A stretch of DNA of 64,000 nt from Escherichia coli (GTDB lineage: Bacteria; Pseudomonadota; Gammaproteobacteria; Enterobacterales; Enterobacteriaceae), in assembly GCF_013122565.1 (NCBI RefSeq), contig NZ_CP053258.1, one strand, 5' to 3'. Each line of letters opens with the position of its first letter. Within the stretch, counting starts at the first letter, position 1. Under the pieces are notes generated by a model. It saw only the letters and a list, made by a program, of their open reading frames with translations, made no database searches and had not been told where the DNA came from. This document shows positions 3,665 through 49,017 of the stretch, piece by piece. The position numbers and the translations under genes are program-made.

Positions 3665-5089
3665 TTACTGCATTAACAGGTAGATGGTGCTGTCGCCGCG
3701 CTGAATGTTCAGTGCCAGCACAGACGGTTTGCTGTCGAGAACTTTACGCAGTTCAGCGATGTTTTTCACTGCCTGCTGGTTCGCGCCAATAATCACATCA
3801 CCTTTCTTCAGGCCGATCTGCGCAGCCGGAGTGCCCGTTTTCACGTTGTTCACTACCACGCCCTGATCTTTGCCTTTGTTGCTCATCTCAGCGCCTTCAA
3901 TGCCGTTGAAGATGGAGCTGGAATCAACCTGATTCTGGCTGCTCTGCTGCAGTTCCAGGTTCACGTTAACCTGCTTACCGTCGCGCAGTAAGCCCAGAGT
4001 CAGTTTGCTACCCACCGGCATAGTACCCACCTGAGCACGCAGCGCGGCAAAGCTGCTGATCGGCTTACCGTTCAGTGAGGTGATCACATCACCCGCTTTA
4101 ATGCCCGCTTTTGCAGCGGAGGAATTAGGCAGAACCTGGCTTACGAAAGCACCGCGCTGGGCGTCAACTTTCATCGCTTTGGCCAGTTCGGAGTTCAGCT
4201 CAGTCCCCATAATACCCAGCTCACCGCGTTTCACCTGGCCGTATTCCACCATCTGCGAGGTCAGGTTTTTCACCATGTTACTCGGGATAGCAAAACCGAT
4301 ACCGATGTTGCCGCCGTCCGGTGCGAGGATCGCGGTGTTGATACCGATCAGTTCGCCGTTCAGGTTAACCAGCGCACCACCGGAGTTACCACGGTTGATC
4401 GCAGCATCGGTCTGGATGAAGTTTTCGTAGTTTTCGGCATTCAGGCCGCTACGCCCCAGCGCAGAGACAATCCCGGAAGTTACCGTCTCGCCCAGACCAA
4501 ATGGGTTACCAATCGCTACGGTGTAATCACCCACGCGCAGTGCATCAGAATCCGCCATCTTAATTGCGGTCAGGTTTTTTGGGTTCTGGATTTGGATCAG
4601 CGCGATATCAGAGCGCGGATCTTTGCCAACCATCTTCGCGTCGAACTTACGACCATCGCTCAGCTGGACTTTAATCACTGTCGCGTTATCAACAACGTGG
4701 TTGTTGGTGACGACATAGCCTTTATCGGCATCAATGATGACGCCGGAACCCAGCGCCATGAATTTTTGTTGCTGGCCGCCACCATTACCGCCCTGGCCCC
4801 CCTGGCAGAACGGAGAGCTCTGGAACGGAGAACCTTCCTGGCAGAACGGTGAATCATCACCGAAGAACTGCTGGAAATTACGCGGCATACGCGGCGTATT
4901 AACGGTTGTGCTACCTTCTACGTTAATGCTGACCACTGAAGGCATCACCTTTTCGAGCATCGGTGCAAGGCTTGGCATCTGCTGGGCTGTCGTTGCTGAA
5001 GATGTCTCAGCCGCCGTTGCAGAGAGCGGAGATAACGCCAAACCTAAACTCAGAGCCAGTGCACTCAGTGCTAATGTGGTTTTTTTCAT
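3665..5089 (-). CDS. degP: Periplasmic serine endoprotease DegP (HtrA)
   Basis: 474-aa ORF with signal peptide, trypsin-like protease core (GNSGGAL) and two PDZ-like C-terminal repeats; recognised as DegP. Confidence 0.96.
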   Translation of the reverse strand: MKKTTLALSALALSLGLALSPLSATAAETSSATTAQQMPSLAPMLEKVMPSVVSINVEGSTTVNTPRMPRNFQQFFGDDSPFCQEGSPFQSSPFCQGGQGGNGGGQQQKFMALGSGVIIDADKGYVVTNNHVVDNATVIKVQLSDGRKFDAKMVGKDPRSDIALIQIQNPKNLTAIKMADSDALRVGDYTVAIGNPFGLGETVTSGIVSALGRSGLNAENYENFIQTDAAINRGNSGGALVNLNGELIGINTAILAPDGGNIGIGFAIPSNMVKNLTSQMVEYGQVKRGELGIMGTELNSELAKAMKVDAQRGAFVSQVLPNSSAAKAGIKAGDVITSLNGKPISSFAALRAQVGTMPVGSKLTLGLLRDGKQVNVNLELQQSSQNQVDSSSIFNGIEGAEMSNKGKDQGVVVNNVKTGTPAAQIGLKKGDVIIGANQQAVKNIAELRKVLDSKPSVLALNIQRGDSTIYLLMQ

Positions 5090-5134
5090 GTATTTCAGTC
5101 TCGATTAACAGATAACGCAAAATTGCTGTGTTCT

Positions 5135-12380: not shown

Positions 12381-12510
<130 letters not shown>

Positions 12511-44616: not shown

Positions 44617-44821
44617 ATCTCTAACCATATGATTTAAAAACAAATCACTTCGCACGGGCAGGTTTTGGCACCGCAACAAAGCGCAAGACACGCAGTATAC
44701 CAGTAAAACTATTCATTCGCGGAATCTGTTAATAAAGCTCGAATTGTGATGACGATCACACATGTTAAAACCTATAATTAATTGCTACTAAAATATTAAT
44801 GAATTGAAATGGTGTCTCTTT

Positions 44822-47212
44822 ATGGCAATTAACAATACAGGCTCGCGACGATTACTCGTCACGCTAACAGCCCTTTTTGCAGCGCTTTGCGGGCTGTATC
44901 TACTCATTGGCGGAGGCTGGCTGGTCGCGATTGGCGGCTCCTGGTACTACCCTATCGCTGGCCTTGTGATGCTCGGCGTCGCCTGGATGCTGTGGCGCAG
45001 TAAACGTGCCGCGCTTTGGCTATACGCCGCCCTGCTGCTCGGCACCATGATTTGGGGCGTCTGGGAAGTTGGTTTCGACTTCTGGGCGCTGACTCCGCGC
45101 AGCGATATTCTGGTCTTCTTCGGCATCTGGCTGATCCTGCCGTTTGTCTGGCGTCGCCTGGTCATTCCTGCCAGCGGCGCAGTTGCCGCACTGGTGGTGG
45201 CACTGCTGATTAGCGGTAGTATCCTGACCTGGGCCGGATTTAACGATCCGCAGGAAATCAACGGCACCTTAAGCGCCGATGCCACACCTGCGGAAGCTAT
45301 CTCACCCGTTGCCGATCAGGACTGGCCTGCCTATGGTCGCAATCAGGAAGGTCAACGCTTTTCACCTCTGAAACAAATTAACGCCGATAACGTCCATAAT
45401 CTGAAAGAAGCCTGGGTGTTCCGTACTGGCGATGTGAAGCAGCCGAACGATCCGGGCGAAATCACCAATGAAGTGACGCCGATTAAAGTGGGCGACACCC
45501 TTTACCTGTGTACCGCTCACCAGCGCCTGTTTGCGCTCGATGCCGCCAGCGGCAAAGAGAAATGGCATTACGATCCTGAGCTGAAAACTAACGAGTCTTT
45601 CCAGCACGTAACCTGCCGTGGCGTCTCTTATCATGAAGCCAAAGCAGAAACGGCTTCGCCGGAAGTGATGGCGGATTGCCCGCGTCGTATCATTCTTCCA
45701 GTCAATGATGGTCGACTGATTGCGATTAACGCTGAAAACGGCAAACTGTGCGAAACCTTCGCCAATAAAGGCGTGCTCAATCTGCAAAGCAATATGCCAG
45801 ACACCAAACCGGGTCTGTATGAACCGACTTCGCCACCGATTATCACCGATAAAACCATCGTGATGGCAGGTTCAGTTACCGATAACTTCTCAACCCGCGA
45901 AACGTCTGGCGTGATCCGTGGTTTTGATGTCAACACCGGGGAGCTGCTGTGGGCTTTTGATCCGGGCGCGAAAGATCCGAACGCAATCCCGTCTGACGAA
46001 CACACCTTTACCTTTAACTCGCCAAACTCGTGGGCACCAGCGGCCTATGACGCGAAGCTGGATCTGGTGTATCTGCCGATGGGCGTGACCACGCCGGATA
46101 TCTGGGGTGGTAACCGCACACCGGAACAGGAACGTTATGCCAGCTCGATTCTGGCGCTGAATGCCACAACCGGGAAATTGGCGTGGAGCTACCAGACCGT
46201 TCACCACGACCTGTGGGATATGGATCTTCCGGCACAGCCGACGCTGGCGGACATCACCGTTAATGGTCAGAAAGTGCCAGTTATTTACGCTCCGGCGAAA
46301 ACCGGCAACATTTTTGTGCTCGATCGTCGTAATGGCGAACTGGTGGTTCCGGCACCGGAAAAACCGGTTCCCCAAGGTGCTGCCAAAGGCGATTACGTTA
46401 CCCCTACTCAACCATTCTCGGAACTGAGCTTCCGTCCGACGAAAGATTTGAGCGGTGCGGATATGTGGGGAGCCACCATGTTTGACCAACTGGTGTGCCG
46501 CGTGATGTTCCACCAGATGCGCTATGAAGGCATTTTCACGCCGCCATCTGAACAGGGCACGCTGGTCTTCCCGGGTAACCTGGGAATGTTTGAATGGGGC
46601 GGGATTTCCGTTGATCCAAATCGTGAAGTGGCAATTGCCAACCCAATGGCACTGCCGTTTGTTTCGAAACTGATCCCACGCGGTCCGGGTAACCCGATGG
46701 AGCAGCCGAAAGATGCCAAAGGCACGGGTACGGAATCCGGCATTCAGCCACAGTACGGTGTACCGTATGGTGTCACGCTCAACCCGTTCCTCTCACCATT
46801 TGGTCTGCCATGTAAACAGCCAGCATGGGGTTATATCTCGGCGCTGGATCTGAAAACTAATGAAGTGGTGTGGAAGAAACGTATTGGTACGCCGCAGGAC
46901 AGCATGCCGTTCCCGATGCCTGTACCGGTGCCGTTCAATATGGGTATGCCGATGCTGGGCGGGCCAATCTCCACGGCGGGTAACGTGCTGTTTATCGCCG
47001 CTACGGCAGATAACTACCTGCGCGCTTACAACATGAGCAACGGTGAAAAACTGTGGCAGGGTCGTTTACCAGCGGGTGGTCAGGCGACGCCAATGACCTA
47101 TGAAGTGAATGGTAAGCAGTATGTGGTGATCTCCGCAGGCGGTCACGGTTCATTTGGTACGAAGATGGGCGACTATATTGTGGCTTATGCGCTGCCGGAT
47201 GATGTGAAGTAA
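44822..47212 (+). CDS. gcd: Quinoprotein (PQQ-dependent) glucose dehydrogenase, membrane-bound
   Basis: Recognised start MAINNTGSRRLLVTLTALFA at ATG 44822 (796 aa); N-terminal transmembrane segments and PQQ beta-propeller. Confidence 0.95.
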   Translation: MAINNTGSRRLLVTLTALFAALCGLYLLIGGGWLVAIGGSWYYPIAGLVMLGVAWMLWRSKRAALWLYAALLLGTMIWGVWEVGFDFWALTPRSDILVFFGIWLILPFVWRRLVIPASGAVAALVVALLISGSILTWAGFNDPQEINGTLSADATPAEAISPVADQDWPAYGRNQEGQRFSPLKQINADNVHNLKEAWVFRTGDVKQPNDPGEITNEVTPIKVGDTLYLCTAHQRLFALDAASGKEKWHYDPELKTNESFQHVTCRGVSYHEAKAETASPEVMADCPRRIILPVNDGRLIAINAENGKLCETFANKGVLNLQSNMPDTKPGLYEPTSPPIITDKTIVMAGSVTDNFSTRETSGVIRGFDVNTGELLWAFDPGAKDPNAIPSDEHTFTFNSPNSWAPAAYDAKLDLVYLPMGVTTPDIWGGNRTPEQERYASSILALNATTGKLAWSYQTVHHDLWDMDLPAQPTLADITVNGQKVPVIYAPAKTGNIFVLDRRNGELVVPAPEKPVPQGAAKGDYVTPTQPFSELSFRPTKDLSGADMWGATMFDQLVCRVMFHQMRYEGIFTPPSEQGTLVFPGNLGMFEWGGISVDPNREVAIANPMALPFVSKLIPRGPGNPMEQPKDAKGTGTESGIQPQYGVPYGVTLNPFLSPFGLPCKQPAWGYISALDLKTNEVVWKKRIGTPQDSMPFPMPVPVPFNMGMPMLGGPISTAGNVLFIAATADNYLRAYNMSNGEKLWQGRLPAGGQATPMTYEVNGKQYVVISAGGHGSFGTKMGDYIVAYALPDDVK

Positions 47213-47250
47213 GACTTGCTCAGATTGCTGACAACGTGCGCGTTGTTCAT

Positions 47251-47349
47251 GCCGGATGCGGCGTGAACGCCTTATCCAGCCTACAAAATTGTGCAAAATC
47301 AATGGATTGCACAGGTAACGTAGGCCTGATAAGCGTAGCGCATCAGGCA
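47251..47349. repeat. BIME / RIP-type element (REP - IHF-like core - REP) between gcd and cueO
   Basis: gccggatgcggcgtgaacgccttatccagcctac and inverted gtaggcctgataagcgtagcgcatcaggc flank a central aatcaatggattg matching the IHF consensus WATCAANNNNTTR. Confidence 0.75.
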
Positions 47350-47372
47350 GATTTGCGTTTGTCATCAGTTTA

Positions 47373-47394
47373 ATGCCCGGAGAGATCCGGGCAT
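47373..47394. terminator. Hairpin downstream of cueO (putative terminator)
   Basis: atgcccgg-agagat-ccgggcat stem-loop about 20 nt 3' of the cueO stop; no clean U-run. Confidence 0.4.
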
Positions 47395-47413
47395 ATTCCC
47401 GAATACGGTCTTT

Positions 47414-48964
47414 TTATACCGTAAACCCTAACATCATCCCCGTATCTTCATGCTCCAGCAGATGGCAGTGCGCCATATAAGCATGTTCTTTCGGTGCGTC
47501 GTGATTAAACTTCACCAGCACTTCACTGACATTGCCTTCTACCTTAACGGTATCTTTCCAGCCCGCGCGATGAGCCGCTGGCGGTTTGCCATTTTCTGAC
47601 AAGATACGGAACTGCGTGCCGTGAATATGGAACGGATGCAGCATCATGTCGCCCACGCCAGAGATAACCCAACGTTCGTACTGCCCTTTCGCCGCCGCAA
47701 ACATCGGCTTATTCATATCAAACGCCTGACCGTTGATTTTATTGGCATGGTGGAAATCGAACTTCCCGCCGTGGTTCATATGATTCATATTGCCGTGCCC
47801 CATATGGCCCATCATCTGGCTGTGATCCATTCCGGCCATCGCCTGATCGCCATATTTCTCCATTAGCATCTGCATCCCCATCATATCGAGCATCGGGTCC
47901 ATAGAAAGTTGCAGCTTGCGTACCGTCAGCCCTTCCAGCGAAGGTAACGCAGGCAGGCTACTTAATGTGTCTGGCAAAGCACCGGAGGCACTAATAGCAA
48001 TCGGCTGAATCCGCATTACCGGATGCGGCTTGTCAAACGGTGCAATCGCCATCCCCATCTGGCTGACCGGCAGCGTCACCAGGTCAAATGGTTTGTTGTC
48101 GTTAACCTCCACCAGCACTTCAAAACGCTCGCCCATCAGCACCGGCAGTTCGCTCACCTTCACCGGTTCAGGTAGCAGACCACCGTCGCTGGCAATCACA
48201 TAAAGCGGGCGATTGTCGCTGGTGGCGAAATTGAGCGAGCGGGCATTACAGCCATTGAGCAAACGCAGGCGCAGCCAACCACGCGGGGCAGCGTGTTGCG
48301 GGTAGATTGCACCGTTGGTCAGCAACGTATCGCCAAACCAGCCCACGGCGGCGGTCATCACATCCAGTTGATAATCAATCTGCCCGTCGGCGCTAAATTT
48401 CTTATCCTGAACGATCACCGGAACATCATCGATACCCCACTGTTTTGGCAGCATTAATTTCAGGATCTCGTCATCTTCAATTACCACCAGCCCAGCCAGC
48501 CCCATCGCCACCTGTCGCCCGGTCTTGCCATGTTGATGTGGATGGAACCAGCAGGTAGCGGCAGGTTGATCAACGTTCAACGTCACCGAGCGCTTGCCAC
48601 CTGGCGGAATAATTCCCTGTGGGCCGCCGTCGACTTCACCCGGTACTTCCAGCCCGTGCCAGTGCAACGTCGTCTCTTCCGTCAGTTGGTTATAGATATC
48701 AACCGTTACCGCTTTGCCGCGCTGTAATTTCACCGCCGGCCCCAGCAGATTGCCGTTATAGCCCCAGGTAGTTGCAGTTTTCTCGCCAAAGGTAGACTGA
48801 CCTGCGCCAATAGTTAACTGAATGCGATTACGGGCATCGGTCGTGAGCAAATCAGGGATCGGTAACGTTGGGCGTTCCGCCGCAAAGACTGCACGGCTCC
48901 ACAGTGGCAAGGCTGAAGCCACACCCAGTGCGACGGAATATTTCAAGAAATCACGACGTTGCAT
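47414..48964 (-). CDS. cueO: Multicopper oxidase CueO (periplasmic cuprous oxidase)
   Basis: Track ORF to 49003; recognised start [22 protein letters not shown] (Tat RR motif) at 48964; Met-rich insert and copper-ligand motifs ([17 protein letters not shown]). Confidence 0.95.
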
Positions 48965-49017
48965 AGTTATTTCCTTATTTTTAAGCAGGCGAAACAAAAT
49001 CAAACGTTGAGCATAGT

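Follow-up and report, generated by a model that had tools for sequence, protein, structure and literature searches.

A BIME-1 repeat with a predicted IHF site in the spacer between the convergent genes gcd and cueO of Escherichia coli

The BIME-1 class of composite repeats was described in the early 1990s and, in K-12, BIME-1 was described as a single-copy element. RIB is said to be the name introduced by Boccard and Prentki in 1993 and RIP that of Oppenheim et al. in 1993, and BIME-1 reportedly belongs to the nomenclature of Gilson and Bachellier. BIME-2, a gyrase-binding element, is composed of Y and Z2 REPs with short linkers, arranged in tandem. The published definition of BIME-1 is that of a single-copy unit in which a y REP and an inversely oriented z1 REP are separated by a long conserved linker, L, that often contains an IHF site (PMC3333891, citing Boccard and Prentki 1993), and Nunvar et al. 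give a matching definition (PMC2817692). Boccard and Prentki, as cited in these two papers, placed such elements at the 3' ends of transcription units. Variation in BIMEs between strains has already been published (PMC3333891) and is reportedly also the topic of Bachellier 1997. REPs and BIMEs have been linked with Rho-dependent termination (PMC2817692), a link reportedly also made by Espeli et al. 2001.

The window analyzed here is a stretch of 64,000 nucleotides of E. coli DNA (NZ_CP053258.1), and all positions are those of the window unless otherwise noted. The gcd open reading frame (44804-47212, plus strand) ends with a TAA stop codon at 47210-47212, while the cueO reading frame (47414-49003, minus strand) ends with a stop codon at 47414-47416 and a C-terminus reading ...MMLGFTV*. 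BLAST matched the two to genes annotated as gcd, quinoprotein glucose dehydrogenase, and cueO, respectively. The genes are convergent, with 201 nt between the stop codons, and the spacer contains one Y-L-Z unit that is extragenic and situated at the 3' ends of both genes. Here the window hardly differs from E. coli O157:H7, and strain PV15-279 is 100% identical to it over 47185-47425. The first REP begins 37 nt past the gcd stop codon, a gap that lies beyond the approximately 15 nt over which translation-coupled REP effects are reported to extend. Two small open reading frames, 47236-47373 on the plus strand and 47150-47365 on the minus strand, were considered as genes and rejected, 1) they are made of repeat sequence, 2) they are missing in half of the genomes and 3) they are unannotated in every record examined.

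The unit consists of a Y-type REP, TGCCGGATGCGGCGTGAACGCCTTATCCAGCCTAC, at 47250-47284 on the plus strand, an L linker of 34-35 nt at 47285-47318 (+) and a short-Z REP, GCCTGATGCGCTACGCTTATCAGGCCTACG, at 47319-47349 on the minus strand. When compared with the Y and short-Z consensus sequences given in Durrant 2024 (PMC11208160), the Y REP matched 33 of the 35 positions of TGCCGGATGCGGCGTAAACGCCTTATCCGGCCTAC, with its CTAC end toward the linker, and the Z REP matched 30 of 30 (47319-47348), with GTAG toward the linker. The two REPs are on opposite strands and inverted, and the inverted arms, 47271-84/47320-33 and 47250-60/47339-49, were recovered independently of the consensus. Only three REP-consensus matches were found in the whole 64 kb, two of which were this pair. 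We take the short-Z form to be the one named z1, partly from the nomenclature and partly from its association with L.

Within the linker, at 47297-47309 (+), AATCAATGGATTG agrees at every position with the IHF core consensus, WATCAANNNNTTR, and is a predicted IHF site; the linker also has a 7-bp palindrome, TGTGCAA/TTGCACA, at 47290-96/47307-13. The IHF core alone is not rare, with five matches in 64 kb compared to 2.1 expected, a value that by simple arithmetic corresponds to about 8e-4 matches expected within the linker itself. Outside the REPs are a left flanking motif, TCAGATTGCTGACAACGTGCGCGTTGTTCA, at 47220-47249 (+) and a right flanking motif, GATTTGCGTTTGTCATCAGTTTA, at 47350-47372 (+), the latter common to the satP-mog, fepA-entD, ybiA-rhlE and msrA-paeA spacers. 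Each flank is an imperfect inverted copy of the other (pair 47226-34/47359-67), and the two presumably represent the outer motifs of BIMEs as first described. The Y REP alone folded with an energy of -15.1 kcal/mol on the plus strand and -18.7 kcal/mol on the minus strand, and the short-Z REP alone with approximately -13 kcal/mol. As a single strand, the entire spacer folded into one long imperfect hairpin on both strands, with energies of -87.3 and -82.0 kcal/mol, and the z-scores for the 221-nt spacer as folded were -6.1 (+) and -6.3 (-).

The Y and z1 REPs in inverted orientation, the long conserved L linker and the IHF consensus within it are all present, and the region from about 47220 to 47372 is, to judge from its sequence, an ordinary BIME-1 copy, with a Y REP, an L linker carrying an IHF core and an inverted short-Z REP. 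The orientation of the REPs, the GTAG and CTAC ends directed toward the long linker with its IHF core and the single, extragenic occurrence are the same as in other BIME-1 elements, and nothing essential differs, the core here being perfect and that of six other linkers having one mismatch. An earlier note on this DNA had placed a composite REP-IHF-REP element of a class known in E. coli, with two inverted REPs around an IHF core match, between the convergent genes gcd and cueO. The reading frames and stop codons (47210-12 and 47414-16), the 33/35 and 30/30 REP matches, the perfect core and the full set of BIME-1 sequence features bear this out. The extent that the note had given, 47251-47349, falls short of the full repeat, as similarity to the paralogs runs from about 47220 to 47372.

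Like BIME-2, the element is composed of REPs that belong to the same superfamily and alternate in orientation. However, BIME-2 has Y and Z2 REPs with a short S linker in tandem, whereas the gcd-cueO element has a short Z, a 34-35 nt linker and a single unit; moreover, its Z REP gave no match to the long-Z consensus within the 6-error limit. Elsewhere in the window, at 12382-12470, there is a BIME-2-like pair in which a linker of 16 nt separates a Y-like REP from an inverted REP of the long-Z (Z2) type; the pair has no IHF core and is followed by another degenerate REP-like stretch. The gcd-cueO element is thus named as an already-known kind of repeat, and this copy has almost certainly been catalogued in the K-12 repeat listing. 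The RefSeq K-12 record, NC_000913.3, which has no repeat features at 138.3-139.2 kb or over its first 50 kb, is uninformative on cataloguing.

In genomes that have no copy between gcd and cueO, the best BLAST matches to the spacer were in the satP-mog, fepA-entD and ybiA-rhlE spacers, and a search with the linker sequence added copies at msrA-paeA, at yidB-gyrB and in the spacer beside pgm. All six other loci align with the gcd-cueO copy across Y-L-Z, and the identity in the three paralogs measured was 86-90% over approximately 150 nt. The linker is homologous to those of the six other loci, in each of which the equivalent of the IHF core is ATTCAATATATTG, with one mismatch. The flanking motifs are common to five of the seven loci, partial at pgm and missing at yidB-gyrB. 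Linker-like sequences (E ≤ 1) numbered from 7 to 40 per E. coli genome, with a median of 25. The repeat is also adjoined by a GC-rich hairpin at the ybiA-rhlE, pgm and yidB-gyrB loci. The satP-mog spacer is a second site of presence or absence. In K-12 this spacer is 34 nt long and has only a terminator hairpin; in strains AF6 and VTB96815v the repeat lies directly against the hairpin, and the hairpin recurs in degenerate form on the other side of the repeat.

The earlier note had also described a separate hairpin after the element, and the analysis agrees. The hairpin, ATGCCCGGA-gaga-TCCGGGCAT, at 47373-47394, pairs perfectly over a 9-bp stem around a 4-nt loop, is specific to this locus and has an energy of -17.4 kcal/mol on the plus strand (z = -4.8) and -16.0 kcal/mol on the minus strand (z = -4.0). 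Its sequence, ATGCCCGGAGAGATCCGGGCAT, was kept in every E. coli allele examined, including those free of the repeat and the 46-nt 'empty' spacer, and the hairpin was also found in two divergent Escherichia genomes (L013 and L016). Since it is present in all alleles examined, with or without the repeat, the hairpin belongs to the locus and not to the repeat. No T-run follows it on either strand, as an intrinsic (Rho-independent) terminator would require, and no promoter-like or terminator-like sites were called in 47100-47520. The hairpin is probably the native end-of-transcript structure serving both gcd and cueO.

The distribution of the element was determined in 5,426 complete E. coli genomes, a genome being scored as carrying it when at least 80% of a 241-nt query was matched. 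The spacer with the element was found in 2,740 genomes, among them K-12, W3110, HB101 and O157:H7. Nearly as many (2,372/5,426), including JJ1887 and an O111:H8 strain, have an empty junction in which the gcd stop codon is followed directly by the hairpin (TAA-CCATA-hairpin, 46-nt spacer). In 95 of the 5,426 genomes, represented by Nissle 1917, ATCC 25922 and 83972, only the left flank is present, fused to the hairpin through an ATGCC that both have. A less frequent allele has an additional unit, composed of the left flank and the Y REP, with a different linker. The unclassified remainder, about 219 of 5,426, may for the most part be an allele disrupted by IS621. Because only about half of E. 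coli genomes have the copy, it is dispensable for gcd and cueO function.

IS621 is an IS110-family element with a bridge-RNA recombinase. Its natural 11-mer target, ATCAGGCCTAC (PMC11208160), is present at 47320-47330 on the minus strand, inside the Z REP, which would act as an IS621 landing site. In strain ETEC4091 (NZ_CP122617.1; L010, 3320-4600) IS621 interrupts the Z REP at exactly this target, with GTAG on one side and GCCTGAT on the other. A rank-based junction query indicated that roughly 190-219 of the 5,426 genomes appear to carry IS621 in the gcd-cueO Z REP, a count that can be given only as a range since it is confounded by IS621 copies in other BIME-1 elements. IS621 was also seen beside BIME-1 linkers at other loci; 1,317 genomes have at least one place that matches, and the median in these is 9 per genome.

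The spacer has also been carried onto plasmids. The 98.5-kb IncY plasmid pE6474.2 (NZ_CP116983.1; L026, 1500-7117) has the complete 160-nt spacer with the element, at 98.8% identity and of the K-12-type allele. Here the spacer and an intact cueO lie between two copies of ISVsa5, an IS4-family element, and the segment looks like a composite transposon that has captured a copper oxidase gene. In all, 37 plasmid records carry at least 80% of the spacer, some of them from E. fergusonii.

When outgroups were sought with the Gcd C-terminus, back-translated into a degenerate pattern, 14 genomes were found, none of them labelled E. albertii, E. fergusonii or E. marmotae. The sequence could be followed as far as the neighboring gene in 13 of these, and gcd and cueO were convergent in every one. 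Three of the 14 are divergent Escherichia, with gcd 93-95% identical to that of the window. One divergent Escherichia (L013) carries one diverged copy in the equivalent position, with locus-specific bases in common with the window copy, and another (L016) has an empty spacer. In Escherichia sp. MOD1-EC7003 (L022, 2667-3524) there is an array of 8.0 tandem Y-L-Z units with a period of 107 nt and 96% matches, and the flanking motifs are found only at the outer ends of the array. The gcd-cueO alleles thus listed form a series: empty, left flank only, single unit, extra flank plus Y, eight tandem units in the divergent lineage and disrupted by IS621.

Outside Escherichia, the spacer in six genomes of Pseudocitrobacter, Yokenella and other Enterobacteriaceae (L011, L012, L019, L020, L023 and L024) is filled with palindromic repeats of the type CCCTCTCCC...GGGAGAGGG. 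Lelliottia, Silvania and Pluralibacter have REP types of their own in the spacer, and in Trabulsiella there is nothing but a plain hairpin with a T-run after it. Since other lineages fill it with unrelated repeats or a plain hairpin, the gcd-cueO spacer is, on this comparison, a tolerated landing or retention site for repeats.

The linker corresponds to the IHF site of the family, so that, by analogy with what has been described for other members, IHF would bind and bend the DNA here. A stronger proposal is that the element is a dedicated IHF-dependent architectural or regulatory site that shapes topology at, or regulates, gcd and cueO, with the REPs secondary. Several observations could be taken in its favor, 1) the core is perfect here and has one mismatch in the six paralogous linkers, 2) the genes are convergent and 3) gcd is among the 55 IHF targets listed by EcoCyc (PMC1636352), although the EcoCyc 'gcd' site may differ from this element. 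However, in the ChIP-chip study of Grainger 2006 on growing MG1655, gcd was one of the four EcoCyc targets that had no IHF peak (PMC1636352), with the same reservation that the site may not be the element. Moreover, the core is simply the linker motif of the BIME-1 family, other genera carry unrelated repeats or a plain hairpin in the spacer, and the whole element is missing at the locus in at least 2,467 of the 5,426 E. coli genomes. The absence of the element from so many genomes, together with the negative ChIP-chip result, makes a dedicated site very improbable, and the IHF core is better regarded as part of an ordinary BIME-1 copy.

REP stem-loops are known to shield the mRNA upstream of them from 3' exonucleases. 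In the transcript of gcd, the element would be located in the 3' untranslated region, upstream of the hairpin, where the REP stem-loops would impede 3'-5' exonucleases and would accompany Rho-dependent termination farther downstream. Transcripts of cueO would meet the hairpin first, and those ending there would exclude the element. The curated Term-seq dataset of Adams et al. 2021 lists no 3' ends in the spacer, the REPs included (PMC7815308). The same study reported a region of Rho termination at K-12 position 138442, on the gcd strand and antisense in cueO, with a Rho score of 3.44 (p = 5.4e-6) (PMC7815308). This region maps to approximately 47605, indicating that at least part of the transcription of the gcd strand continues through the repeat and then the hairpin until Rho terminates it, a few hundred nucleotides farther on. 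A Rho region at this position fits the published association of REPs and BIMEs with Rho-dependent termination (PMC2817692).

The linker might alternatively be supposed to encode a small RNA of its own, of the ES036/CssrF type. The Rfam model RF02751 matches 47285-47327 at full length (E about 2-4e-6), with all 43 positions aligned and the same hairpin as ES036 (CssrF), and a CssrF band was seen on Northern blots from the Shigella dacB-yhbZ spacer (PMC3071730). However, the score, 37.2 bits, misses the gathering score of 37.6 by 0.4 bits, the Shigella band is about 290 nt rather than 43 nt (PMC3071730), and the gcd-cueO locus gave no sign of an independent transcript, either in the promoter scan, which found no promoter-like site in 47100-47520, or in the 3'-end tables, in which no end is catalogued in the spacer (Adams 2021). 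The model is itself composed of the BIME-1 linker and the first bases of the Z REP, and the match consequently follows from membership in the repeat family. A small RNA encoded by the linker is therefore even less credible than a dedicated IHF site.

At the gathering threshold, Rfam reported nothing at the gcd-cueO locus. A half-match of naRNA4 (RF02564) to the Y REP (47245-47281, minus strand; 34.8 bits compared to a gathering score of 59.5) reflects the Y REP that the element has in common with REP325 and not an naRNA gene. Two other places in the window had matches above the gathering score, the tp2 sRNA at 62916-63029 (+), with 103 bits, and the HtrA 5' UTR thermometer at 5084-5129 (-), with 77 bits.

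The notion that these are chance palindromes, or a compound transcription terminator unrelated to any repeat family, has only GC-rich stems in its favor and practically no probability in view of the 30/30 REP consensus match, the paralogs at six other loci that align across Y-L-Z (86-90% identical in the three measured) and the lack of any called terminator-like site, the consensus matches and the paralog alignment together excluding a chance origin.

It is very probable, then, that the BIME-1 copy between gcd and cueO is a non-autonomous selfish or neutral repeat situated beside a hairpin that resembles a terminator, and that its influence on the 3' end of the gcd mRNA and on local DNA bending is modest at most. 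In several respects it resembles the REPIN/RAYT systems. An inverted REP doublet with a conserved GTAG is the form of substrate described for TnpA_REP (PMC3333891), and the gcd-cueO locus shows strain-variable presence and, in a related lineage, tandem amplification. By analogy with the family, the REPs would serve as substrates of the REP-associated Y1 transposase. There is no RAYT gene near the element within the 64-kb window, a stretch outside the K-12 tnpA_REP region, and no target-site duplication was visible in the gcd-cueO or satP-mog alleles compared.

The copy matters little in itself, and its practical use is in annotation. The 45-aa and 71-aa reading frames that cross the element should not be annotated as genes, the near-match to ES036 is accounted for and the Z REP is a predictable landing site for IS621. 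The allelic series provides a natural experiment on the effects of BIME-1 and its IHF site on mRNA 3' ends or on local topology. We also entertain, as a doubtful possibility, that BIME-1 with its flanks may act as a mobile or recombinogenic unit of approximately 150 nt that comes to lie directly against the hairpins of terminators and has remained active in Escherichia. If true, this would contradict the textbook picture of BIME-1 as a static, single-copy element.
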